This document shows positions 20,216-56,045 of a stretch of DNA of 64,000 bases, in pieces; the first letter of the stretch is position 1; every line of letters starts with the position of its first letter. The DNA comes from Candidatus Woesearchaeota archaeon (GTDB lineage: Archaea; Nanobdellota; Nanobdellia; Pacearchaeales; GW2011-AR1), in contig CAYPFA010000001.1 in the NCBI GenBank assembly GCA_964410025.1, forward strand, positions 31,401 to 95,400. The letters run 5' to 3'. Both the position numbers and the translations under genes were made by a program. The notes under the pieces are model-generated. The model saw nothing but the letters and a program-made list of their open reading frames with translations. It ran no database searches and was not told where the DNA came from.

Positions 20216-20300
20216 ACCATATTGATGTTTTTGTGCTTTTTAAATGTTAAGAAACATATTCGTAAGCTTTAAAAGTCTTGAAAATTCTAAATTATTATAA

Positions 20301-20406
20301 GGGCCTATAAGCTAATGAACCATCGTGGTTGCTTATGGGTAAATAATAAATAAGGGCCTATAAGCTAATGAACCATCGTGGTTGCTTATGGGTAAATAAT
20401 AAATAA
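20301..20406 (+). repeat. two tandem 53-bp units, each starting with the first 17 nt of tRNA-Val
   Basis: Unit = GGGCCTATAAGCTAATG + AACCATCGTGGTTGCTTATGGGTAAATAATAAATAA. Identical copies lie at 20301-20353 and 20354-20406, and the third period begins the real gene at 20407. The unit is self-complementary (CCTATAAGC/GCTTATGGG and AACCA/TGGTT). Confidence 0.85.
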
Positions 20407-20477
20407 GGGCCTATAAGCTAATGGTAGACTCTCTCGCTTACACCGAGATGGCGGAGGTTCGATCCCTCCTGGGCCCA
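20407..20477 (+). tRNA. tRNA-Val (anticodon UAC)
   Basis: Acceptor GGGCCTA/TGGGCCC (one G-U), with T8, A14, G18G19 and A21. Anticodon arm TCTCG-CTTACAC-CGAGA and T arm GGAGG-TTCGATC-CCTCC. Discriminator A, and CCA is not encoded. The D stem has one C-A mismatch. Confidence 0.8.
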
Positions 20478-20503
20478 TTTAATATTTATAATTGAACCGG
20501 AGC

Positions 20504-20605
20504 TGGCGGAGGCGAAAATTTCGCTTTGAGTAAAAATAAATTAAGACAGAAAGCAATTTTTACGAAATGCAAAATTTGAGGAGATCCCTCCTGGGCCCAT
20601 TTAAT
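20504..20605 (+). repeat. partial 3' copy of tRNA-Val with 70 nt inserted in the T loop
   Basis: 20504-20512 TGGCGGAGG equals tRNA nt 44-53. A 70-nt insert follows (20513-20582). Then 20583-20605 GATCCCTCCTGGGCCCATTTAAT is identical to 20461-20483 (tRNA nt 57-73 plus 6 nt of flank). Confidence 0.7.
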
Positions 20606-32150: not shown

Positions 32151-32231
32151 AATATTAAAATTAAAGAGCACTACAAATCTTTTTAAATCCTCGAAAAGTT
32201 ACATTCTTAGGCAGTCGTGGTTAAGTGGTAG
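32151..32231 (+). repeat. 81-bp direct repeat, right copy (functional promoter plus 5' part of tRNA-Gly)
   Basis: Identical to 24849-24929. The TTTTTAAAT TATA-like box is centred about 27 nt upstream of tRNA position 1. Confidence 0.8.
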
Positions 32232-32281
32232 AATATGACCTTGCCAAGGTTGTGACCCGAGTTCGATTCTCGGCGACTGCA
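32211..32281 (+). tRNA. tRNA-Gly (anticodon GCC)
   Basis: Acceptor GCAGTCG/CGACTGC and D loop AAGTGGTA. Anticodon arm TGACC-TTGCCAA-GGTTG and T arm CCGAG-TTCGATT-CTCGG. Discriminator A, and CCA is not encoded. Confidence 0.85.
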
Positions 32282-32329
32282 TAGAACAAAAGTGTTCAAC
32301 ATGAGAATCTTTATAAAATAAAATCATTG

Positions 32330-32372
32330 CCGAGAAGCGAAGGAGGAGAGTGAGATTCTCGGCGACTGCATA
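32330..32372 (+). repeat. partial 3' copy of tRNA-Gly with an expanded T loop
   Basis: CCGAG is followed by 19 nt (AAGCGAAGGAGGAGAGTGA) replacing TTC. Then GATTCTCGGCGACTGCATA is identical to 32265-32283 (tRNA nt 57-73 plus 2 nt). Confidence 0.7.
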
Positions 32373-35208: not shown

Positions 35209-36375
35209 TTATGGGTTAATAGAATCTATCAACATTTTCTCAGAAAGTTTTTCTTCTTTTCCAGTCTTCATATTTTTCAAAGTATATTTTTTATTCCTAA
35301 CTTCATCTTCTCCAATAATAATTACTTTCCCAATTTTTTTCGCATTTGCAAAATCCAAAGCCTTACTTGGCGCTTTATCTGTTAACAAAACAACTGCAAC
35401 ATTTTTCTCCCTTAATTTCTGCGCAATCTCTATTGCTTTCTCGTCTTGATTCATTGATAAAATTAAAAAATCTTTATTCTCATTGTCAATTTTTGAAAGC
35501 AAAAATAATGGTTCGAGTCCAAAGGAAATTCCAGCTGACTGACTTCCGTTTATCATATAGGCACCACCACCAGAAAGTGCAACACCCAAATCCTTGCTCC
35601 AAATTTCAAATACACTTCCGTTATAATAACTCAAACCCCTTGCTAGAAACGGTCTGAATTCAATTTCAACACCATAACTTTTACAAAGTTCTTTCAGTTT
35701 AACAATATCTTTATAATAAGAATATTTCGCAAAACTTTTTTCTGGAGATGTAAATATATCAACCAACTTTTCAGCTTTCAATTCCTTAAGATTTTTCTTA
35801 ACTTCTTCCTTAGATAATTTATCTAACTTATCAAGCTCTCTTATAACCTGCTCTCTTTCTCTTTCTGGAATTCGCTCAGCTTCCAAAACTTCATTAATCA
35901 ATTTTCTATTATTAAAATAAATTGTTGCTGGGATTTTCAAACCTTCAAAAACATTTTTCGCCAAAGCCATTAACTCAGCCTCTTCTTTTATGGAACTTCC
36001 AATAACATCTGCATCACACTGAATAAACTGCCTAAGTCTGCCTTTCTTTATCGGCTCATCTCTAAAAACATAACCAATCTGATATCTTTTGTATGGCAAT
36101 TTTTGATTTTTTGCAATTCTTTTTAGCTGAAATGTAAATTCAAATCTTAAAGCAAGTTTTCTTTCTCCCCTATCTTGCAATCTAAAAACATCCCTAACGG
36201 CCTCGTCTTTTTCATTGTCGCCTTTAACAAATTCTTCAGATTCTACAATCGGAGTCTCAGCCGGTTCAAAACCAAATAATTTAAATTGATTTCTAATTAT
36301 CTCCATCATATTTTCTCTCTTCTTAGCATCCTCGCCAAAAAAATCCTGAAATCCCTTAATAGTTTCTGTGTTCAT
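35209..36375 (-). CDS. histidyl-tRNA synthetase-like protein (probable HisZ regulatory subunit, or divergent HisRS)
   Basis: Class II HisRS-like motifs GFQDFF, FRDEPIKKGRLRQFIQCD and SGGGAY (Arg of the GGGRY motif replaced), plus a C-terminal anticodon-binding-like alpha/beta domain. It is the last gene of an operon that starts with a short-form hisG, which normally needs HisZ. Confidence 0.65.
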   Translation of the reverse strand: MNTETIKGFQDFFGEDAKKRENMMEIIRNQFKLFGFEPAETPIVESEEFVKGDNEKDEAVRDVFRLQDRGERKLALRFEFTFQLKRIAKNQKLPYKRYQIGYVFRDEPIKKGRLRQFIQCDADVIGSSIKEEAELMALAKNVFEGLKIPATIYFNNRKLINEVLEAERIPEREREQVIRELDKLDKLSKEEVKKNLKELKAEKLVDIFTSPEKSFAKYSYYKDIVKLKELCKSYGVEIEFRPFLARGLSYYNGSVFEIWSKDLGVALSGGGAYMINGSQSAGISFGLEPLFLLSKIDNENKDFLILSMNQDEKAIEIAQKLREKNVAVVLLTDKAPSKALDFANAKKIGKVIIIGEDEVRNKKYTLKNMKTGKEEKLSEKMLIDSINP

Positions 36376-36806
36376 TTTAGCTCCTTCTCATAAATAAACT
36401 GATTTTTACTCAATTTATATCTTTTGTTTTTATAAAATTTAAATGCTTTCGAACTTTTAAGACTAATCAACATCAAAAGTTTACAACCTCGTCGTGCATA
36501 TTCTTTCTCCATCCAGTCTAAACAAAAACTTCCGAGACCCTTATTTCTGAATTCTCCTTTAATTGCAAATTGTTCTAGCGATGCAACCTGCCCAGAAATA
36601 AACTGATAAGGATTTATCACAAAAAATCCAACAATTTTATTTTTATAAAAAACAGAATAAACATCACAATATCTGGAAAAAACTTTCAATTTTTTCAGAG
36701 CAAGTTTCGGCGTCCAACTTTCATTATACTCTTTTGAAAAAACGTCCGAATAAATTTCAGCAATTTTTCCATATTCCCAAAACCTAGTTTTTCTGATTGT
36801 TATCAT
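36372..36806 (-). CDS. GNAT family N-acetyltransferase
   Basis: EFRNKGLGSF acetyl-CoA-binding motif (Q/RxxGxG/A). Confidence 0.7.
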   Translation of the reverse strand: MITIRKTRFWEYGKIAEIYSDVFSKEYNESWTPKLALKKLKVFSRYCDVYSVFYKNKIVGFFVINPYQFISGQVASLEQFAIKGEFRNKGLGSFCLDWMEKEYARRGCKLLMLISLKSSKAFKFYKNKRYKLSKNQFIYEKELK

Positions 36807-38035
36807 AATAATTCCTTCTCTAATTTAATTAGATTTTTCTTATTTATTAAGGTTTCTTTCTCAAGTCTAGCCAGTGCGGCTTTTTTGTGTCCGTCAAGTC
36901 CCTCAAGTTTCGCCAGTTTAGCAGCAATATTTTGAAGCGCCTTGCTATTCTTATTTATTTTTTGGAAAGTAGTAATTTTAATAAAATCTTTTACAGATAA
37001 TCCAGATGCATATCTTGCAGCACCTCCAGTAGGTAATGTGTGATTTGTTCCAGAGCAATAATCTCCAAAGACTTCTGCGGAATAATTTCCAATAAATAAA
37101 GATCCGTAATTACTTAATTTACTAATTATTTTTTCTGGATTCTTTATTTGTAATTCTAGGTGTTCCGGAGCCATGGAGTTAGAAATATCTATGGCTATTC
37201 CGAGATTCTTTACGACTTGAATCTTGCTTTTTCTTAATGAGATGCGAGCGACATCTTTTGTTTTTAATTCCGCCAACTGAATTTTTAATTCGCAAGCTAC
37301 ATCTTCAGCGAGTTTTTTTGATGTTGTTAGTAAATTGGCTTTCGCTTCCATATCGTGTTCTGCTTGAGCCAATAAATCGGCGGCAATAAACTTTGGAACA
37401 GCAGTCTCATCGGCTATTATTAATACCTCACTTGGTCCAGCAATAAAGTCAATCCCAACATCACCATAAACCATTCTCTTTGCTTCTGCTACATATTTAT
37501 TTCCCGGTCCCACAATTTTATCCACCATTGGCACTTGCCTTGTCCCATAGGCCATTCCAACTATTGCCTGAACACCACCAATGTTAAAAATTTCATCTGC
37601 ACCAGCGATATCTGCTGCCACAATACTTATTGGAGAAATTTTAGGAGAACAAACTATTATTTTTTTCACGCCAGCTACTTTGGCAGGAATAACCGTCATA
37701 AGTGCAGTAGATGGGAGAGGATATCTTCCGCCAGGAACATAACATCCAACACAATCTAAGGGAATAATTTTCTGTCCGATTACTCCATAATTTTTTTTAA
37801 CACTAAAATTCCTAAATTGTTTCATTTGCGATTTTGCAAAACTTCGGATATTTTTAGCAGCCATAATTAATGTTTCTATTGCGTTTCTATCGGTTTTGGC
37901 ATATGCTTCTTTGATTTGTTTTTTTGTTAATCGAAAGCTAAAATTATCATTGTCATCGTAAAATTTATTATATTTTAAAATAGCCAAATCTCCATTTTGT
38001 TTTACATCTTTAATTATTTTTTTTACAATTTTCAT
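36803..38035 (-). CDS. hisD: histidinol dehydrogenase
   Basis: YVPGGRYPLPSTALM, AGPSEVLIIAD, QAEHD and NHTLPTGGAARY motifs. Confidence 0.9.
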   Translation of the reverse strand: MKIVKKIIKDVKQNGDLAILKYNKFYDDNDNFSFRLTKKQIKEAYAKTDRNAIETLIMAAKNIRSFAKSQMKQFRNFSVKKNYGVIGQKIIPLDCVGCYVPGGRYPLPSTALMTVIPAKVAGVKKIIVCSPKISPISIVAADIAGADEIFNIGGVQAIVGMAYGTRQVPMVDKIVGPGNKYVAEAKRMVYGDVGIDFIAGPSEVLIIADETAVPKFIAADLLAQAEHDMEAKANLLTTSKKLAEDVACELKIQLAELKTKDVARISLRKSKIQVVKNLGIAIDISNSMAPEHLELQIKNPEKIISKLSNYGSLFIGNYSAEVFGDYCSGTNHTLPTGGAARYASGLSVKDFIKITTFQKINKNSKALQNIAAKLAKLEGLDGHKKAALARLEKETLINKKNLIKLEKELL

Positions 38036-38745
38036 TTTTTATCTCTCCTTAAATTTTCAAAAATGGAATAGTCGGTTGTAGATTTTGCGAGTATTTTTAT
38101 TGTGTTAAATATGGGGAAATCTGCACAATTGTCATCTACAATTAAAGGAAGTTCCGTGCATCCCAAAACTATTCCTTCTGCACCACACTGTAGTAATTTT
38201 TGCGATATTTTTAATAAATAATTCTTATCCACCTCAGTTTTATTCCCACCCAATACTCTTAGGATTATGTTGTTTATTTCTTCTATTTCATTATTGGACG
38301 GGGTTAGAATGTCAATACCATATTCTTTAAAATATTTTTGATAGAGTTTAAAATTATAAGTTGTTTTGGTGGCAAGCAATCCCACTTTTTTAATATTTTT
38401 TTTAGTTAAAAATATTGCAACTTCTTCTATGAGATTTAATGTCTTGATTTGAGCTGCATTGCTATAGGCGTCATAAATAATATTTATAGTATTGCATGGT
38501 ATGGAAATAATTTCAGCCCCAAGGATTTCGAGTTTTTTACAGCAATCTCTCATCATTTCCTCTGCGAGTTGAAGATTGGAAACATTTTCAACAATATCTG
38601 GAATTGGTAAATTTATAATATACATCTCCGGATATTCTGAGTCATATACGGCACCGTATTCATTTTGAAAAATATTTATTATCTCTTGGTAAAAGCGTAT
38701 TGTAGCTTCAGGACCCATGCCTCCGATAATGCCTATTTTTTTCAT
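38032..38745 (-). CDS. aspartate/glutamate racemase family protein
   Basis: IGIIGGMGPEAT N-terminus, with the two catalytic Cys contexts IPCNT and LGCTELP. Confidence 0.8.
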   Translation of the reverse strand: MKKIGIIGGMGPEATIRFYQEIINIFQNEYGAVYDSEYPEMYIINLPIPDIVENVSNLQLAEEMMRDCCKKLEILGAEIISIPCNTINIIYDAYSNAAQIKTLNLIEEVAIFLTKKNIKKVGLLATKTTYNFKLYQKYFKEYGIDILTPSNNEIEEINNIILRVLGGNKTEVDKNYLLKISQKLLQCGAEGIVLGCTELPLIVDDNCADFPIFNTIKILAKSTTDYSIFENLRRDKK

Positions 38746-39038
38746 TTTTTATCTCTCCTTGCATTTTCTTTATAAATATCTTCAAGCGTAATTTCAGCTT
38801 CGGTCATATAAACTAAAAGAAAATACATCAAATCTGCGCATTCCCAAATAAGATTCTCCTTGTCTTTTGATGTTATAACTTCTGCCGCTTCTTCTATTAA
38901 CTTTCTTTTCAAAAGTTCTTTATCTGCAACCAACTTTTTAGTGTAAGAATTTTCTTCTCCACTGGCAATTTTCGTTTTAATTTTTTCATAGAGCTCTTCT
39001 AAATTAAGTTCGTTATTCGTTTTCATTTTTACCTCCAA
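38742..39038 (-). CDS. hisE: phosphoribosyl-ATP pyrophosphatase
   Basis: NSYTKKL, KLIEEAAEV and ECADLMYFLLV motifs of the HisE/MazG-like family. Confidence 0.85.
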   Translation of the reverse strand: MEVKMKTNNELNLEELYEKIKTKIASGEENSYTKKLVADKELLKRKLIEEAAEVITSKDKENLIWECADLMYFLLVYMTEAEITLEDIYKENARRDKK

Positions 39039-39585
39039 TTATTACAATATCCGATTCGAAAATTTTATCATAGACTTTTAATCCGGCTTCTTCAGCCGAC
39101 TTTCCGGAATAAACAATATCGACGACTAAATCAACAATCTTGTTGACAAAAGCAGATTCGGTAGCACCAGAAAGATATATTTTTTCAAAAACAAAGCCGC
39201 GTTCAAATTCAAGTCTCGCCAAATATTTCTTGGCGATTTTGGAGTATTTCCGATTGATGCAAACTCTTAGTTTTTTTTCAAGCTCTTCAATTTTTTTATT
39301 TTTGTCTCCAAGTAAACAGAGAGTTGGTTTGCCATAAACGCAATCAGAATCGTTCCATGAGACAGTTTTAATTTTCTCAAATTTACTATTTCTATTTCTA
39401 ATACAAAATTCTTTCAGTAAATCCTCTCCAGTGATGCCAATGACTTTCTTGTTTTGCCTAAAAAGCTCATCAACAAATAACGGAACATCCTCTCCACGAA
39501 CCTCCAATATCTCTCCAGAATACTCCTTAGAAATTTCTTTACAAATAGCAAGTCCAGAATTTTTCGGTACGATGAATATAATCAC
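39013..39585 (-). CDS. hisG: ATP phosphoribosyltransferase, short form
   Basis: 190 aa with a GTG start. GITGEDLL and DLVVDIVYSGKSAEEAGL match the HisG catalytic region, and there is no C-terminal regulatory domain. Confidence 0.8.
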   Translation of the reverse strand: MIIFIVPKNSGLAICKEISKEYSGEILEVRGEDVPLFVDELFRQNKKVIGITGEDLLKEFCIRNRNSKFEKIKTVSWNDSDCVYGKPTLCLLGDKNKKIEELEKKLRVCINRKYSKIAKKYLARLEFERGFVFEKIYLSGATESAFVNKIVDLVVDIVYSGKSAEEAGLKVYDKIFESDIVIIGGKNENE

Positions 39586-39783
39586 AGCTTTGTTGAGCTA
39601 CCATGTTATACTCCGAGAAATAAAAAATTGCGAGTAGGGAATCGGATTTGTAGATTTATAGGCAGATGGGCTGGAAGGTGCGAGCAAAACGCTTTTGCTT
39701 TTATCTTGCACAGCAACTATTATTTCGTTTTTCGCAAATGCATTTTGTGAGTAAAGAATCGGACTGACCGATTCACATTTAAG

Positions 39784-39927
39784 GGCGGAAGGTGTGAGAC
39801 CTTTAGAGAAGGTCATCCCCACGGGAAATCGGACTTGTCCGATGAACACATTAAAGGCGGAAGGTGTGAGGCCTTTAGAGAAGGTCATCCCCACGGGAAA
39901 TCGGACTTGTCCGATGAACACATTAAA
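39784..39927 (-). repeat. two tandem 72-bp units, each a cloverleaf-like fold ending in the tRNA-His 3' terminus
   Basis: Unit (minus strand) = TTTAATGTGTTCATCGGACAAGTCCGATTTCCCGTGGGGATGACCTTCTCTAAAGG[C/T]CTCACACCTTCCGCC. Copies lie at 39927-39856 and 39855-39784 with 1 mismatch. The last 13 nt equal the T-stem 3' strand, acceptor 3' strand and C73 of the adjacent tRNA-His. A degenerate further copy CGCACCTTCCAGCC lies at 39682-39669. Confidence 0.85.
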
Positions 39928-40083
39928 GGCGGAAGGTGTGAATCGGACACACGTCTCACGAGTTCTGTCTTGTTGTCTGTCGCCAGACAGGAAGGATAGT
40001 TTTTCTACCTTCCTAGAGGCTCTTTTTTCTAAAAAGAACCTGTAGACCACAGTCGCGTATTCTACCATTGAACTACATCCGCC
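39928..40083 (-). tRNA. tRNA-His (anticodon GUG) with an 84-nt intron at 37/38
   Basis: The 5' exon is encoded G-1, GCGGATG, D arm GTTC-AATGGTA-GAAT, then CGCGA-CTGTGG. The intron spans 40046-39963. The 3' exon is C-TCGTG, AGAC, T arm GTGTG-TCCGATT-CACAC, CTTCCGC and discriminator C73 opposite G-1. Splice sites lie in 3-nt bulges (GG|T and AA|C) flanking a CTGT/ACAG helix, a relaxed bulge-helix-bulge. Confidence 0.7.
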
Positions 40084-40097
40084 ATATTTATTTCTGA

Positions 40098-40144
40098 ACG
40101 TCTCTGAGCCACAGTCACGCATTCTACCATTGAACTACCGAGCT
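40098..40144 (-). pseudogene. intron-less partial tRNA-His-like copy (about positions 1-47) immediately upstream of tRNA-His
   Basis: AGCTCGG-TA-GTTCAATGGTAGAAT-G-CGTGA-CTGTGG-CTCAGAGACGT. The D arm and anticodon loop are identical to tRNA-His, but the acceptor strand differs, there is no G-1 and no matching 3' strand. A TATA-like ATTTAAAG lies about 28 nt upstream. Confidence 0.5.
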
Positions 40145-40665
40145 TTAGCTTTTGACAACTTTCCTGTTCTTTAAATCTTCCGTATGGACAAAAGACAAGG
40201 CAGGGAAAGGAGCCATTAATTATATTTAAATCTAAATTCGAGGGTATAAAAATGTTGTTAGAATTGGAAATAAAGCAAAGGCTAGTTGAATTACAAACTG
40301 TGCCGATAACTCCATTGATTTACCATAATAATTTTAGAGCTACCACCTTTAAAAAGTTTTCTATTCCAAATCAAACCATACCTTTTTAATCTCCTTTCAC
40401 GACTATATTTTATGGACAACAAATTTTTAGCGATAAGAAACAAGAGCATGATTGCCAGGACTAAGTCTAGACAAGGCAATCAAAATATGAAAACACTCGG
40501 TATAACTAACCCAAAGTATAATGAACGTGGAGAAAGAAAAAGAGAAAGATACCAAAAAGCAAGCGAAAAAGGAAGAGATCTCTACCATAAGGCAAGAAGA
40601 CGTGGAGCAAACAATCAAAGAACAAGAAGACGTAGAAGAAGATAAATTAGAAGGATTTTTATAGA

Positions 40666-45942: not shown

Positions 45943-47103
45943 ATGCCAACATCTTGTTTCAAAATTCTTCACAAAGATAAAAAAACCGACGCACGAGTTG
46001 GCGAAATTTCAACAAAAAAAGGAAAAATTAAAACTCCTTTTTTTATGCCCGTTGCAACAAAAACTTCTGTTAAACATATTAATTCTCGAGACCTAGAAGA
46101 AATGAATTGCCCGGCAGTAATTAGCAACACTTTTGTTTTACATTTACGACCTGGAGAAAAACTAATCAAAAAATTCGGAGGAATTGGAAAATTTATGAAC
46201 TTCAAAGGAATTAACGTAACAGATTCTGGTGGTTTCCAAATGTATTCTCCGTCGCTATATCATTCCTCCGATGAAAAGGGAGTTACTTTCAAAAATCCCT
46301 ATGATGGCAAAAAAGTTTTCATCACACCAGAAAAAGATATGCAAATTCAACTAGACTTGAACGCAGAAATTGCAATGTGTTTAGATACAATGCCTCTGAT
46401 TGAACATCACAAAGAACAAATTCAGCTCGCAGTTGAAAGAACAACAGCCTGGGCAAAAAGATGTAGAGAAACTCACAATAAACTTCAATCAAAAATTCCA
46501 CAAAATAAAAGACAACTTCTTTGGGGAATAACTCAAGGTGGAATTCACGCAGACCTGAGAGAAAAATCAGCTAGAGAATTAAAAGAAATTGATTTTGACG
46601 GTTATTCTGTTGGCGGATTAGCCCTAGGCGAAACTATCGAACAAGAAATGGAAATGATTGACATTCATAAAAAAGTTATTGGAGAAAGCAAGCCTTGTTA
46701 TTTAATGGGCGCAGGAAATCCAGTTGAAGTTTTAGAAGCAATTTCCAAAGGAGTTGATATGTTCGATTCAAGATTCCCGACGCAAAACGCGAGAAGAGGA
46801 ACAATTTTTACATCAAAAGGAAAACTAAGAATTTTTAGAAAAAAACACATAATGGAAAACAAACCATTAGATGAAAATTGCGATTGTTTCGTCTGTAAAA
46901 CCTACACTAGAGGCTACATAAGATACCAACTTTTTCAAGAAGAAGCAGTTGGAATGCGTTTAGCAACTTTCCACAATTTATATTATCTAACAAAACTAAT
47001 GGAACAAGCAAGAGCTGCAATAAAACAAGGAAAATTTTTAAAATTCAAAAACAAAATCAAAAAGATCTACGAAAAAGAAGACGCTGGTGTTGAACAGAGA
47101 TAA
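45943..47103 (+). CDS. tgt: tRNA-guanine transglycosylase (archaeosine/queuine TGT family, catalytic domain only)
   Basis: FMPVAT, TDSGGFQ, GGLALGE and the zinc site CDCFVCKTYTRGYIRY. At 386 aa it lacks the C-terminal PUA-containing domains. Confidence 0.85.
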   Translation: MPTSCFKILHKDKKTDARVGEISTKKGKIKTPFFMPVATKTSVKHINSRDLEEMNCPAVISNTFVLHLRPGEKLIKKFGGIGKFMNFKGINVTDSGGFQMYSPSLYHSSDEKGVTFKNPYDGKKVFITPEKDMQIQLDLNAEIAMCLDTMPLIEHHKEQIQLAVERTTAWAKRCRETHNKLQSKIPQNKRQLLWGITQGGIHADLREKSARELKEIDFDGYSVGGLALGETIEQEMEMIDIHKKVIGESKPCYLMGAGNPVEVLEAISKGVDMFDSRFPTQNARRGTIFTSKGKLRIFRKKHIMENKPLDENCDCFVCKTYTRGYIRYQLFQEEAVGMRLATFHNLYYLTKLMEQARAAIKQGKFLKFKNKIKKIYEKEDAGVEQR

Positions 47104-51731: not shown

Positions 51732-53327
51732 TTATTTCTTTTCTTCCTCAAGCTGCTTAATTTTTTTCTTCAGCTCCACCATCTTCAATTCTCTATCGAT
51801 GGCGATATTATTGAATCTCTCTAATTCTGATGCTCTTTCCTCCAACTCTCGAGATTTTACACTTCTCTCAGTTATATCTTGCATAATAGCGAATATTTTA
51901 TTTGGATGATTTTTTATTAAAGTTGCGCTAATTTCAATATCAATTACAGAACCATTTTTATTTTTAATCTGTGTTTCAAATTTAATAGATCCCCTCTCTC
52001 CTATTTTTTTAATATTAGCCTTTAACTCTTCTTTACTCAATTTTATATCACAATCTCCCAAACGCATCTTAAGTAATTGCTCTCGGGAATATCCTGTAAT
52101 ATTACAATAAGCATCATTCACCTCTTGAATATTGCCCTCACCATCTGAGACAATAAATCCATTAGTCATTGTTCTAATAAGCGTGTTATATTCTGTCTGC
52201 GTTTTTTTCTTTTCAGTAATATCTTCAGAAATTCCCATCAAATATTTTAACTTACCATCTTCCATAATTGGAATTTTTTTAGTGTGCAGCAACCTTTTAC
52301 CGCCCTTAGTATCTATTGGCTCCTCTGGAATATCCAATAATTTTCCACTTTTTAAAACCGCACGATCTTTCTGTGTAAAAAAATCTGCCTGCTTTTTTGG
52401 AAAGAAATCATAATCTGATTTCCCAAACAACTGTTCCTGTTTTTGTCCCAATAACATTTCTCCTGCTTTATTAAATAATTCAAATTTCAAATCTTTAGCA
52501 TCCTTAACAAAAATCATATCCGGAACATTTTCAAGAACAGAACTTAAGAAAGTAGTTTGTTTTTGCAATTCTGCAGTTCTTTCAATAACAATTTTATCCA
52601 CATTTTCTTTTGCTTTTCTCAATTCTTCTTCTGTTTTCTTTTTTTCAGTAATATCGTGCATAATACCGATGGCATAAAGTAATTTACCTCTAGAATCAAG
52701 TATAGAATCTGCCCTTTCCCATAAAGAAAACAATTCCCCCTTAGAATTAAATGCATTCAATATGCCTTCCCAGCTCTTACCTTTATTAAGCAATGGAACA
52801 ACTTGGCTATTTAATATCTTGACTGATTCTGGCGGGTAAAAATCTCTATAATTTATCTTTCTAAATTCTTCAAGTGTTTTTCCAAAAAGCTTTTCATGAG
52901 CCTTATTAATATCAATAATTTTACCGTCTGAATCGCTAATTGCAAAAGCTTCACTTGAAAAATCAAATACCTTCTTGTAAATATTTAATTTATCTTCGAG
53001 TTCTCTCAAATGGATAACTACTTTTTCTTTTTCCCTATTCGCAATTTCTAATTCATCTGCTCGCTTTTGTTTTTCGCTATTTTCAAAAACAAGTTTTCTA
53101 TTGGCAATAACCAGTTCAGCAACTCGTTTAGCTTTTTCTGCTACAGCAATTTCTAATTCATGTGCTCGCTTTTGTTTTTCACTATTTTCAAAAACAAGTT
53201 TTCTATTGGCAATAACCAGTTCAGCAACTCGTTTAGCTTTTTCTTTATTTTCAAAAACAAGTTTCTTATTAGCAATAATAAATTTGTCAGCTAGTATCGC
53301 TTTTTCCTTCAACTCTCTTTCATCCAT
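51732..53327 (-). CDS. multi-PAS sensor protein without a kinase domain, with N-terminal 22-aa repeats
   Basis: N-terminal repeats of IANRKLVFENSEKQKRAxELE, then three PAS-like modules each followed by DITE[RK]K, and a C-terminal coiled coil. It has no HisKA/HATPase motifs. Confidence 0.75.
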   Translation of the reverse strand: MDERELKEKAILADKFIIANKKLVFENKEKAKRVAELVIANRKLVFENSEKQKRAHELEIAVAEKAKRVAELVIANRKLVFENSEKQKRADELEIANREKEKVVIHLRELEDKLNIYKKVFDFSSEAFAISDSDGKIIDINKAHEKLFGKTLEEFRKINYRDFYPPESVKILNSQVVPLLNKGKSWEGILNAFNSKGELFSLWERADSILDSRGKLLYAIGIMHDITEKKKTEEELRKAKENVDKIVIERTAELQKQTTFLSSVLENVPDMIFVKDAKDLKFELFNKAGEMLLGQKQEQLFGKSDYDFFPKKQADFFTQKDRAVLKSGKLLDIPEEPIDTKGGKRLLHTKKIPIMEDGKLKYLMGISEDITEKKKTQTEYNTLIRTMTNGFIVSDGEGNIQEVNDAYCNITGYSREQLLKMRLGDCDIKLSKEELKANIKKIGERGSIKFETQIKNKNGSVIDIEISATLIKNHPNKIFAIMQDITERSVKSRELEERASELERFNNIAIDRELKMVELKKKIKQLEEEKK

Positions 53328-53840: not shown

Positions 53841-56045
53841 TTATACTTTTCCTAATTCCTCCGTCTTTTTAAACTTTGCCTTTAATGGAAGAGTAAAATA
53901 AAATTTGCTACCCTTTCCAAATTCAGATTCAACCCATATTTTTCCACCATGTGCTTCAACTATGTGCTGACAAATATTTAATCCTAGCCCCATGCCACCC
54001 TGCGCTCGACTAATGACCGACTCTACCTGGAAAAACGGTTTAAACAAATGATCTATTGATAGAGCAGAAATACCTTTTCCCGTATCCTGAACCTCAACTA
54101 AAATTTCATCGTCACGTTTTTTAGCACGAATAACTATCTCTCCCTTCTTTGTAAATTTAATTGCATTATCCACCAAATTAGTAATAACCTCTAATATTCT
54201 TCTTTCATCACCTGCAACTTCCAAATTCTCTCCATCTTTATAAAACAACTTAACTCCCGAAGAAATAGACAATTTTTCAAAATTATCCACCACTTGTTTT
54301 ATACAATTTGACACATTAACTTTAGATATTTCTAATTTAAAATTACCCGACTCCATTACTGAAATTTCTAATAAATCCATTATCATAGCCTTTAATCTTT
54401 CCGTATTACGTAAGACAATCTCAAAACTCTCCCGCTGTTTATCATTCAAATTTCCACGACTACCGTCTATAAGCATCTGTAATTGAAGCATAGTGGGGGC
54501 AAACGGAGTTTTTAATTCGTGAGAAGTTAATACTAAAAAATTATTTCTAAAAGCCTCAGCCTCTTTTACGTGTTTAAGTGCGTCAGCTAATTCTCTTGTC
54601 CTCTCCTCAACTTGTTTTTCAACATTTTCCTTTGCTTTTCGCAATTCATCTTCTGTTTTCTTTCTTTCAGTAATATCTTGAATTGAACCAAACATCTTAA
54701 TTGGACTTTTGCCACCATTAAACTCTAATTTGCCAATACCATGAACCCAATGAGTAGTTTTATCTGACTTACGGACAATTCTATATTCCTTATTAAAATT
54801 TTTATGTTTTTGTAAAACTTCTATATTAAAATAAGAATTCATCATTTCCCTATCTTCCGGATGAATTAAATTAATCCAACCCTCTATAGAACGAACGTAT
54901 CTGGAATCAATTCCAAAAACACTGTCCATTTCAGAAGTGCTACTCCAAAGACCAGTTTTTATATCTAGGACATAACTTCCAAGATGCGCTAGTTTTTCAG
55001 CTCCCTCTAAAATATTATTTTTATTTTTTATAATCTCCTCTGCCTTCCTTCTATTAGTAATATCTCTAGACAGTGTAAGAATTACGGCAGATTTCCCGGA
55101 GTTAAAAAGTGCAGCGTTAATTTCCATGGGAATAATTTTGCCCTGTCTAGTTACATAATCAATCTCTAAATTCCTAATAGGCCTATGCTCAAAACACTTT
55201 TTCATTTCCGCTCTACTTCTTTTCAAATCATACTCTGCAATCAATTCGCTCATATTTCTACCGACTATTTGCCGTAAATTATCATGCCCTGTTAATTTAA
55301 GATACACATGATTTGCATCTAAAACATTTCCCTTTGCATCAATGGTCACATAGCCCATTTCAGTTGTATCAATCAAAGTCTCATATTTTGCAACACTCGT
55401 CTGCAATTCCTCCCACATTTTTTTAAGCTCACTAAAATCCTCTTCCGATTTTGCAACCTCTACAATTTCTCCCGCTTCAAAAATAGGAGAATAGGTGATA
55501 TTTACGAATACTTTCTCACCACCCTTATTTACTCTAACTTGTTTAGAGAAAAAAGTAGGTTTGCCTTCCATAATTGACTTGATATTTCTTTCTGCTTCAG
55601 CCCTGTTTTCCTTAGCAATTATTTTTGTAATATTCTTACCCAGCATTTCCTTTTCCGTAAATCCATAAATCAGCTCAGCCCCGGGATTCCATGCCCTAAT
55701 AATTCCATTAAAATCTTGAATGGTAATCGCCTCTTTAGAATCTATTACAACTGTTTTATAATATTTTAACTTATCTTCGAGTTCTCTCAAATGGATAACT
55801 ACTTTTTCTTTTTCCCTATTCGCAATTTCTAATTCATCTGCTCGCTTTTGTTTTTCGCTATTTTCAAAAACAAGTTTTCTATTGGCAATAACCAGTTCAG
55901 CAGCTCGTTTAGCTTTTTCTGCTACAGCAATTTCTAATTCATCTGCTCGCTTTTGTTTTTCGCTATTTTCAAAAACAAGTTTTCTATTAGCAATAATAAA
56001 TTTGTCAGCTAGTATCGCTTTTTCCTTCAACTCTCTTTCATCCAT
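53841..56045 (-). CDS. PAS-domain sensor histidine kinase
   Basis: Same N-terminal 22-aa repeats and several PAS modules. The H box is LTSHELKTPF and the HATPase motifs are DNAIKFT, DTGKGI and GMGLGLNI. Confidence 0.85.
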   Translation of the reverse strand: MDERELKEKAILADKFIIANRKLVFENSEKQKRADELEIAVAEKAKRAAELVIANRKLVFENSEKQKRADELEIANREKEKVVIHLRELEDKLKYYKTVVIDSKEAITIQDFNGIIRAWNPGAELIYGFTEKEMLGKNITKIIAKENRAEAERNIKSIMEGKPTFFSKQVRVNKGGEKVFVNITYSPIFEAGEIVEVAKSEEDFSELKKMWEELQTSVAKYETLIDTTEMGYVTIDAKGNVLDANHVYLKLTGHDNLRQIVGRNMSELIAEYDLKRSRAEMKKCFEHRPIRNLEIDYVTRQGKIIPMEINAALFNSGKSAVILTLSRDITNRRKAEEIIKNKNNILEGAEKLAHLGSYVLDIKTGLWSSTSEMDSVFGIDSRYVRSIEGWINLIHPEDREMMNSYFNIEVLQKHKNFNKEYRIVRKSDKTTHWVHGIGKLEFNGGKSPIKMFGSIQDITERKKTEDELRKAKENVEKQVEERTRELADALKHVKEAEAFRNNFLVLTSHELKTPFAPTMLQLQMLIDGSRGNLNDKQRESFEIVLRNTERLKAMIMDLLEISVMESGNFKLEISKVNVSNCIKQVVDNFEKLSISSGVKLFYKDGENLEVAGDERRILEVITNLVDNAIKFTKKGEIVIRAKKRDDEILVEVQDTGKGISALSIDHLFKPFFQVESVISRAQGGMGLGLNICQHIVEAHGGKIWVESEFGKGSKFYFTLPLKAKFKKTEELGKV

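Follow-up and report, generated by a model that had tools for sequence, protein, structure and literature searches.

The 64,000-nt stretch of Candidatus Woesearchaeota archaeon DNA considered here (hereinafter the window; GenBank assembly GCA_964410025.1, contig CAYPFA010000001.1) carries, between its tRNA-His(GTG) gene and hisG, a tandem array of short units, each of which ends in a copy of the 3′ terminus of that tRNA. We posit that this array is a genomic scar and not a gene, namely that it probably represents recombination scars of the attachment-site (att) type at the end of the tRNA gene, which were then tandemly amplified. Nothing that we found supports a selected RNA function for it, and it is presumably neutral. 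All coordinates are those of the window, in which the locus is read on the minus strand.

Anatomy of the array and its tRNA gene

Directly after C73 of tRNA-His lie two 72-nt units, as an earlier sequence-only reading of this stretch had rightly recognized: unit 1 (39927..39856), the variant with AAAGGCC, and unit 2 (39855..39784), which differs from it by a single C-to-T change (AAAGGTC). Tandem Repeats Finder reports a period of 72 nt with 2.6 copies and 93% matches over 39757-39941. Each unit consists, in this order, of TTTAAT, the palindrome ATCGGAC-AA-GTCCGAT, a G+C-rich middle of 30 nt and TCACACCTTCCGCC. The palindrome, found at 39915..39900 in unit 1, combines an inverted and a direct copy of the T-loop, with its right arm being the T-loop sequence, whereas the TCACACCTTCCGCC element at the 3′ end is identical to positions 60-73 of the tRNA (39869..39856 in unit 1 and 39797..39784 in unit 2). 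This tail had been described as the 13-nt tRNA terminus; its presence at 72-nt spacing holds, but the exact block of identity between the tRNA end and the units begins at tRNA position 60 and measures 14 nt. The 13-mer CACACCTTCCGCC itself has exactly three exact occurrences, spaced 72 nt apart, and six matches when up to two mismatches are allowed, as compared to 0.25 expected by chance. A 7-nt GCCTTTA/TAAAGGC match spans the junctions of the window unit; a reading of the unit as bounded by terminal inverted repeats on this basis was dropped because the other inserts described below are devoid of any such repeat.

Behind the units are the diverged remnants that had likewise been noticed earlier. 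The older module, U′ (39783..39669, minus strand; 115 nt), was delineated by alignment and a k-mer map. Its left end and T-loop palindrome (GAATCGG-TCA-GTCCGATTC, 39774..39756) are as in the units, and its right end is a decayed tRNA end that now reads CACCTTCCAGCC. The 84 nt between them are unlike the unit middle in alignment, leaving only both ends and the first hairpin as retained features. U′ further holds an inverted 10-mer and a direct 9-mer of the tRNA (p<0.003), with TGTGAATCGG being a perfect 10-nt inverted copy of CCGATTCACA. The oldest module, U″ (about 39668..39620, minus strand), is heavily decayed (AAATCTACAAATCCGATTCCCTACTCG) and gives way to a T-rich stretch; a direct TCCGATTC match lies in this region, and its 74% match to a hairpin module of a related locus (L019) is weak on its own (E 0.23). 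There is thus a gradient leading away from the tRNA, from units that are 99% identical with 50.7% G+C, through U′ with 40% G+C and recognizable ends only, to the barely recognizable U″. This decay gradient suggests that the newest module is the one nearest to the tRNA gene. The G+C content of the units stands out against the 33% of the window, placing them in the top 0.2% of 144-nt windows, in agreement with the earlier observation of a G+C-rich island. The 174-aa and 83-aa open reading frames (ORFs) over the array region both exist and are, as had been suspected, spurious; a protein database search with the 174-aa ORF recovered homologues from the same species only.

The number of units differs between assemblies, a variation that the sequence-only reading had raised: the window and two JGI assemblies have two, while a third JGI assembly has three in the order C, C, T. 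An identical ORF is present on an NCBI contig too. In six independent Logan assemblies, the contigs with an identical hisG all begin at a point precisely 31 nt ahead of the base by which the two units differ, as expected of an assembler with k=31 at a repeat. The repeat is hence not an assembly artefact. We found no copies of the unit elsewhere in the 64-kb window, in about 20 kb of flanks or in about 90 related loci, no match to the tRNA 3′ end and unit core in viral contigs, and no match to the array sequence in BLAST searches of phages and plasmids. By these comparisons, the units appear to be restricted to the species of the window. Among the closest hisG relatives, one (P0004) might conceal a similar array within a 131-aa ORF that is annotated next to hisG on its upstream side, and the contigs of two others (P0008 and P0009) stop too near hisG to cover the region.

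The tRNA-His gene itself (40082..39928, minus strand) looks functional. It scores 43.8 bits against Rfam RF00005, with membership defined by a score of at least the gathering threshold of 29 bits with RF00005 and the covariance models of its clan, and its fold has a z-score of −4.0. The gene comprises an encoded G-1 (40083), a 5′ exon (40082..40047), an intron (40046..39963) and a 3′ exon (39962..39928). The long insert in the anticodon loop was identified by a bulge-helix-bulge scan as a canonical 84-nt intron, with the outer helix CGCGA/TCGTG (h=5), the central helix CTGT/ACAG and the bulges GGT and AAC; ARAGORN run without its intron mode misses the gene. The acceptor stem (GCGGATG / CTTCCGC) contains a U6-U67 mismatch shared with four related loci (L015, L017, L043 and L048), and that of some other relatives (GCGGTTG) would have two U-U mismatches. 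Upstream of it lies an orphan, intron-less 5′ fragment of a tRNA-His with a GTG anticodon (40143..40099, minus strand; positions 1 to about 48). Its match to tRNA positions 7-24 and 29-39 is exact and takes in the intron-less junction GGCTC, and its acceptor strand (GCTCGG) has diverged. The fragment is also found in L013. Further upstream, comparison with relatives points to a TTTTTATA box (40252..40245, minus strand) as marking the ancestral promoter region of tRNA-His, in which it presumably serves as a promoter element. In the relatives, the tRNA starts about 31 nt past this box; in the window, an insertion of ~70 nt comes after the expected start (about 40213). Of the 60 nt upstream compared, L015, L019 and L030 display CTTTTTATACC...TTAAATATAA..AATG directly before tRNA-His.

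Copies of tRNA ends at related and neighboring genes

A metagenome scan with a hisG profile yielded 80 related loci. In at least 50 of these, ARAGORN finds tRNA-His(GTG) as the immediate upstream neighbor of hisG, usually 30-60 nt away, and further such pairs are visible by eye where introns defeat the program; the linkage is therefore ancestral, and the short spacing suggests that the two genes share a transcript. In the second-closest relative with available DNA (L014, hisG 76% identical), an intron-less tRNA-His ends about 35 nt before the hisG ATG, with no units between them. Other lineages do have inserts between tRNA-His and hisG, measuring 36 nt (L026), 78 nt (L040/L041), 114 nt (L017/L018), 138 nt (L101/L102) and 674 nt (L025), the last with a 170-aa ORF between 19-nt repeats. 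These are unrelated, and each is bounded by direct repeats of the tRNA end. BLAST comparisons of inserts across lineages gave only marginal matches outside the hisG leader, and a common element family among them is not established. Downstream of every tRNA-end copy at the His locus comes the conserved leader of hisG. In the window, this is TTCTCGGAG (39619..39586, minus strand) with a Shine-Dalgarno-like GGAG at 39614..39611, and it is 82-95% conserved with L017, L019, L026, L030 and L101.

Across nine independent cases, the blocks of identity between tRNA and downstream copy measure 12-23 nt, with their first base at tRNA positions 57-64 and their last 0-8 nt beyond the gene end. Of 76 tRNA calls, 11 have a further occurrence of the 13-mer from the tRNA 3′ end on the downstream side (several of these 11 being one locus in different assemblies), as compared to none upstream and none in the reverse-complement controls. 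Direct as well as inverted pieces of the T-arm are significantly overrepresented in the inserts, and T-loop palindromes of the kind seen in the window (ATCGGAC-AA-GTCCGAT) recur as AATCGAAC-AG-TTCGATT in L019 and GGAATCGAA-C-TTCGATT in L040.

An Rfam scan of the whole window at gathering thresholds detects three tRNAs only, and all three of their genes carry miniature repeat-insert-repeat scars. The Val and Gly 3′ copies, to which the units had been likened from the outset, are both confirmed. In the tRNA-Val region (20297..20605, plus strand; the gene itself at 20407..20477), a 23-nt copy of the 3′ end and flank lies 122 nt downstream of the original (20583..20605, plus strand), and two perfect 53-nt tandem units precede the gene (20297..20402, plus strand). 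Each of these units starts with ATAA and the first 17 nt of the tRNA and holds an inverted copy, GCTTATGGG; they are the 5′-end counterpart of the His units. Within the 53-nt unit, CCTATAAGC pairs with GCTTATGGG around an inner AACCA-TCG-TGGTT stem to give a hairpin. In the tRNA-Gly region (32211..32372, plus strand; the gene itself at 32211..32281), a 19-nt copy comprising positions 57-73 and two further nucleotides lies 89 nt downstream (32354..32372, plus strand), and the insert holds an inverted 8-mer of the T-arm. This scar is also present in L001. No further tRNA genes were found in the flanks beyond the window (L095 and L097). The presence of scars at three tRNAs of the window and at several related tRNA-His genes suggests that tRNA ends are unusually active recombination sites in the small genomes of DPANN archaea.

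Two related loci have two tandem tRNA-His genes upstream of hisG. In L046 (248-2940) these are 2.5 kb apart, with two cysteine-rich secreted ORFans, and in L048 (1524-1860) they are 190 nt apart; both may be larger versions of the same insertion process. In five loci (L049, L056, L058, L071 and L074), the first ~14 codons of hisG recur as a pseudo-copy located some 150-200 nt upstream of tRNA-His (for example, TTGGTTATATTCATTGTT, which reads LVIFIV...). The tRNA gene and its promoter region therefore lie between direct repeats of the hisG 5′ end, which is the repeat-insert-repeat layout applied to the start of a protein-coding gene.

Among the tRNA-His genes of the clade, introns of 11-159 nt are common, and insertions in the D-arm and T-loop are also present. 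In L058, tRNA-His (about 990-1060) has a second intron of 32 nt at T-loop position 59/60, with a bulge-helix-bulge motif that uses the T-stem as its outer helix and has a 10-bp inner helix and one mismatch in the central helix. A similar T-loop insertion is seen in L071, and L062 combines a D-arm insertion with a 159-nt canonical intron; ARAGORN misses the tRNA-His genes of these three loci or labels them as Tyr or Asn. The T-arm copy in the window units is broken at the very same position, 59/60 (GTCCGAT / 30 nt / TCACAC).

Origin of the array

In the scenario that we favor, a gap of 30-60 nt would have separated tRNA-His from the downstream hisG in the ancestor, and the two were probably co-transcribed. 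In the lineage of the window, the T-loop/3′ end of the tRNA-His gene would have repeatedly received short DNA segments, each of which brought along another copy of the 3′-terminal 12-20 nt of the tRNA. The earlier 3′ end, along with all that lies behind it, would have been pushed downstream and the intact gene rebuilt by the incoming DNA; the displaced 3′ fragment would retain its old flank, which is the attL/attR geometry of site-specific integration into tRNA genes. The most recent module, whose 72 nt comprise 58 nt and the 14-nt repeat, may then have been amplified to two or three copies by unequal recombination or replication slippage between direct repeats of 14-20 nt, which would result in the observed two-versus-three copy difference. 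U′ and U″ would be decaying toward the A+T-rich background, and the array, now situated within the tRNA trailer and the leader of the his operon, is presumably transcribed. A simple tandem duplication of the tRNA end and its flank was rejected, as it cannot give the initial repeat-insert-repeat layout.

Two features expected of att remnants are present: the direct repeats derive from the T-loop/3′-end sublocation and extend past the gene in the nine independent cases, and all the downstream copies at the His locus keep the original downstream flank. The sequence-only reading had itself allowed that the units might prove to belong to an att site, and the evidence favors this, although it does not prove it. 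Several points weigh on the other side. Neither an integrase nor Cas1 nor a transposase was found among the roughly 50 window ORFs of at least 150 aa scanned; searches of Pfam and PHROG left the insert ORFs of L025 and L046 without a match; and no free element with a matching att site was recovered from the viral contigs, phages and plasmids searched, such that integrase, cargo and attP are all missing from these sets. To our knowledge, inserts of 36-138 nt are orders of magnitude below any described integrated element. The enrichment of direct and inverted T-arm pieces in the inserts is not obviously explained by a foreign element. Furthermore, the high G+C in a genome of 33% G+C could reflect selection and not youth, and the two-versus-three copy difference could be in part an ambiguity of short-read assembly.

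The T-arm pieces are more readily accommodated if replication or repair without any mobile element made the inserts, an explanation that we consider unlikely as a whole. Here, the tRNA end, prone to hairpins and highly transcribed, would suffer breaks or fork stalling, and repair of these by fold-back priming and serial template switching would yield inserts composed of direct and inverted T-arm sequence that slippage then amplifies. Beyond the significant enrichment of such fragments, the perfect 10-nt inverted copy in U′, the T-loop palindromes of the window, L019 and L040, the 53-nt units with their inverted copy of the 5′ end of tRNA-Val, and the lack of a recombinase or element among the scanned window ORFs and viral contigs are consistent with it. 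However, no match to the tRNA or to the neighboring flanks exists for the middles of the modules (30 and 84 nt) or for most of the other inserts, the 674-nt insert of L025 contains a complete foreign ORF between its 19-nt repeats, and the downstream remnant in L019 fits a T-stem type other than that of its current gene, which suggests that the 3′ part was imported. A miniature mobile element moved by a transposase or casposase-like enzyme, with a 14-nt target duplication and new copies placed beside the tRNA, strikes us as very improbable. The duplication at the tRNA 3′ end with the T-loop just upstream does resemble the target of the Aciduliprofundum boonei casposase, where a 15-bp duplication overlaps tRNA-Pro and a T-loop segment is required (PMC5137440). 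The apparent placement of the newest copies nearest to the tRNA and the common ends but different middles of the units and U′ also fit such an element. Yet the repeat length is not fixed, being 14 nt in the window and 12-23 nt across cases, the inserts have no terminal inverted repeats save the 7-nt match at the window-unit junctions, no other copy exists in the window, its flanks or the related loci, and the scanned window ORFs include no Cas1 or transposase. Two further mobile or repeat classes were compared with the array. Arrays of clustered regularly interspaced short palindromic repeats (CRISPR) have repeats of 25-40 nt and unique spacers, whereas the repeat here is 14 nt and the intervening 58 nt are alike between units; and copies at unrelated sites, as expected of miniature inverted-repeat transposable elements, were absent from the 64-kb window, ~20 kb of flanks and ~90 loci.

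The sequence-only reading had presented the units as cloverleaf-like and possibly as a new functional element, a proposal that fared poorly. An RNA element in the tRNA-His trailer and his-operon leader might act either as a mimic of the tRNA end, with HisRS/HisZ or a tRNA-processing enzyme being titrated and hisG-hisS expression thereby tuned, or as a structure that stabilizes the 5′ end of the mRNA after RNase Z cleavage; we regard both versions as distinctly improbable. Bacteria are known to have tRNA-like operators to which the cognate synthetase binds (E. coli thrS). The position of the units between tRNA-His and an operon with hisG, hisE, hisD and a HisRS-like protein, their high G+C in an A+T-rich genome and the retention of the first hairpin in the units, U′ and inserts of other lineages speak for such a role. 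Against it, the units are missing from close relatives that retain the operon, and their copy number is variable. A permissive Rfam scan of 39560-40260 (E<=10), a check that had been suggested for the units, returned tRNA-His only, with no match over the units. Single units do not fold better than shuffled sequence (z −0.28 for unit 1 and −0.95 for unit 2). The four-way junction drawn for each unit is indeed the minimum-free-energy fold of unit 2 but not of unit 1, and the sole substitution between the copies turns an A-U pair of its GACCTT/AAGGTC arm into an A-C mismatch, with the mismatched form being the majority variant in the three-unit assembly. The protein search with the 174-aa ORF gave no diverged homologues outside the species in which compensatory changes could be sought, and U′ keeps no more of the supposed cloverleaf than the ends and first hairpin. 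Moreover, the G-1:C73 identity element cannot form within a unit, which has no 5′ acceptor strand. A T-box or his attenuator was discarded in view of the archaeal host, the lack of an Rfam match and the orientation of the units, which have the same sense as the tRNA end and are not its complement. It is exceedingly improbable that the units instead supply the 3′ half of a tRNA-His that is split or has several introns, to be joined to a 5′ part by the archaeal splicing endonuclease. The wealth of disrupted tRNA-His genes in the clade and the true bulge-helix-bulge intron of L058 exactly where the unit is interrupted do lend this idea some appeal, but no such motif links the tRNA or the orphan fragment to the units. 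A strict scan gave 18 hits as compared to 24 in shuffles and recovered only the 84-nt anticodon-loop intron, and a relaxed scan gave 14 hits as compared to 22.5, with none above background in the units; the T-loop intron of L058 was detected as a positive control. In addition, the 5′ strand of the unit T-stem is interrupted, the orphan fragment has an acceptor strand (GCTCGG) that shows no complementarity to CTTCCGC, and an intact tRNA-His sits immediately upstream.

Alongside the att-type scars that we favor, a broader proposal deserves mention, which we rate as quite unlikely. A process active in the clade might add short modules at the ends of tRNA genes, always on the tRNA-proximal side and consisting in part of T-arm sequence in direct and inverted copy (at tRNA-Val, of sequence from the 5′ end), and these modules might provide the raw material for T-loop (59/60) introns and fragmented tRNA genes. 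If so, the units would be snapshots of the birth of disrupted tRNA genes and not ordinary integration scars. As the clade is rich in disrupted and multi-intron tRNA-His genes, the locus offers a possible entry to the long-standing question of the link between mobile-element attack and tRNA gene fragmentation. From the viewpoint of annotation, such arrays create spurious ORFs (174 aa in this case), break short-read assemblies and may be taken for tRNA-like genes.

Genomic setting and comparison with known systems

The operon downstream of the array (39585..35209, minus strand), annotated with Pfam and NCBIfam, codes for HisG (39585..39013), HisE, an Asp/Glu racemase, HisD, a GNAT acetyltransferase and a 388-aa HisRS/HisZ-like protein with an anticodon-binding domain, and its gene order is repeated in L001 and L013. 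More generally, the clade shows the order tRNA-His, hisG, hisE (or hisIE), sometimes hisD, and the HisRS/HisZ-like gene (window 35209-40083, minus strand, and at least 50 related loci), with the histidine pathway only partly encoded at the locus. This conserved order, running from tRNA-His through hisG to a HisRS-like gene at the far end, is notable in its own right. Within the leader, an ATG at 39604..39602 opens a conserved 19-nt segment and a short out-of-frame ORF ahead of the hisG GTG start at 39585. The segment, which lies between GGAGG and that GTG, reads ATGGTAGCTCAACAAAGCT (window; also L015-L019, L026, L028 and L035) and is lacking in L014. Its ATG is correctly spaced from GGAGG, the ORF (in the window, MVAQQSCDYIHRTEKFWTCYL*) overlaps the hisG start, and the segment resembles a tRNA D-arm (GTAGCTCAA..AGCT).

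The named hisG homologues come from Pacearchaeota, Woesearchaeota, Nanoarchaeota or an organism labelled merely "archaeon". The TyrRS of the window matches the NF006330 tyrosine-tRNA ligase model, which we take to be of the archaeal type, and ribosomal protein L10e is also encoded in the window. With the archaeal type of the tRNA-His intron, these features make a DPANN archaeon the most likely host. A search of the GTDB representative genomes with hisD recovered no close relative, the best match being bacterial at 47%. The same genome encodes a queuine tRNA-guanine(34) transglycosylase of the bacterial type (45943-47103, plus strand; TIGR00430, 407 bits), whose gene is near tRNA-His, a tRNA that would be among its substrates. 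Two sets of 105-nt tandem repeats (1.9 copies, 89-97% matches), at 53041-53306 and 55822-56024, fall within two adjacent genes for PAS-domain sensor/histidine kinases; their consensus sequences are related, and they look like a recent internal or paralogous duplication.

Three known systems come closest to the array. The T-loop bulge-helix-bulge introns and disrupted tRNAs of DPANN and Thermoproteales share with it the interruption of the T-arm at 59/60 and a host clade with many disrupted tRNA-His genes, and DPANN endonucleases accept non-canonical introns (PMC3239211, PMC5829648). In contrast to such introns, the units lack the bulge-helix-bulge motif, lie outside the gene and are dispensable for making the tRNA. 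As with the A. boonei casposon target and the leader-proximal insertion of CRISPR (PMC5137440), a duplication of 14-15 bp rests on the tRNA 3′ end with the T-loop upstream, new copies would arise on the tRNA-proximal side, and repeat-insert-repeat arrays result. Unlike those systems, there are no terminal inverted repeats, no Cas1 was found in the window, the inserts are identical and the length of the duplication varies by locus.

The closest correspondence is with the partial tRNA genes made by integration, a known source of such fragments that is documented in archaea (PMC9897764), with integrases using the T-loop and 3′-end sublocations of tRNA genes (10.1101/2020.11.02.365908). In those cases, as here, the direct repeat runs from the T-loop/T-stem to a few bases past the gene, an intact gene stands on one side and a fragment on the other, the fragment keeps its original downstream flank, and the partial gene adjoins a normal one (PMC9897764; 10.1101/2020.11.02.365908). 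The described integrations involve elements of 9-23 kb with repeats of 40-50 bp and an integrase; in contrast, the present inserts measure 36-138 nt (674 nt in one instance), have repeats of 12-23 nt and no recognizable integrase or cargo, and are further set apart by the tandem amplification of modules and the inverted T-loop copies within the inserts. Partial tRNA genes made by insertion have thus been described, though not so small or in tandem (PMC9897764), and we would place the array among these known insertion-made tRNA-gene fragments as a miniature variant that has been amplified in tandem.

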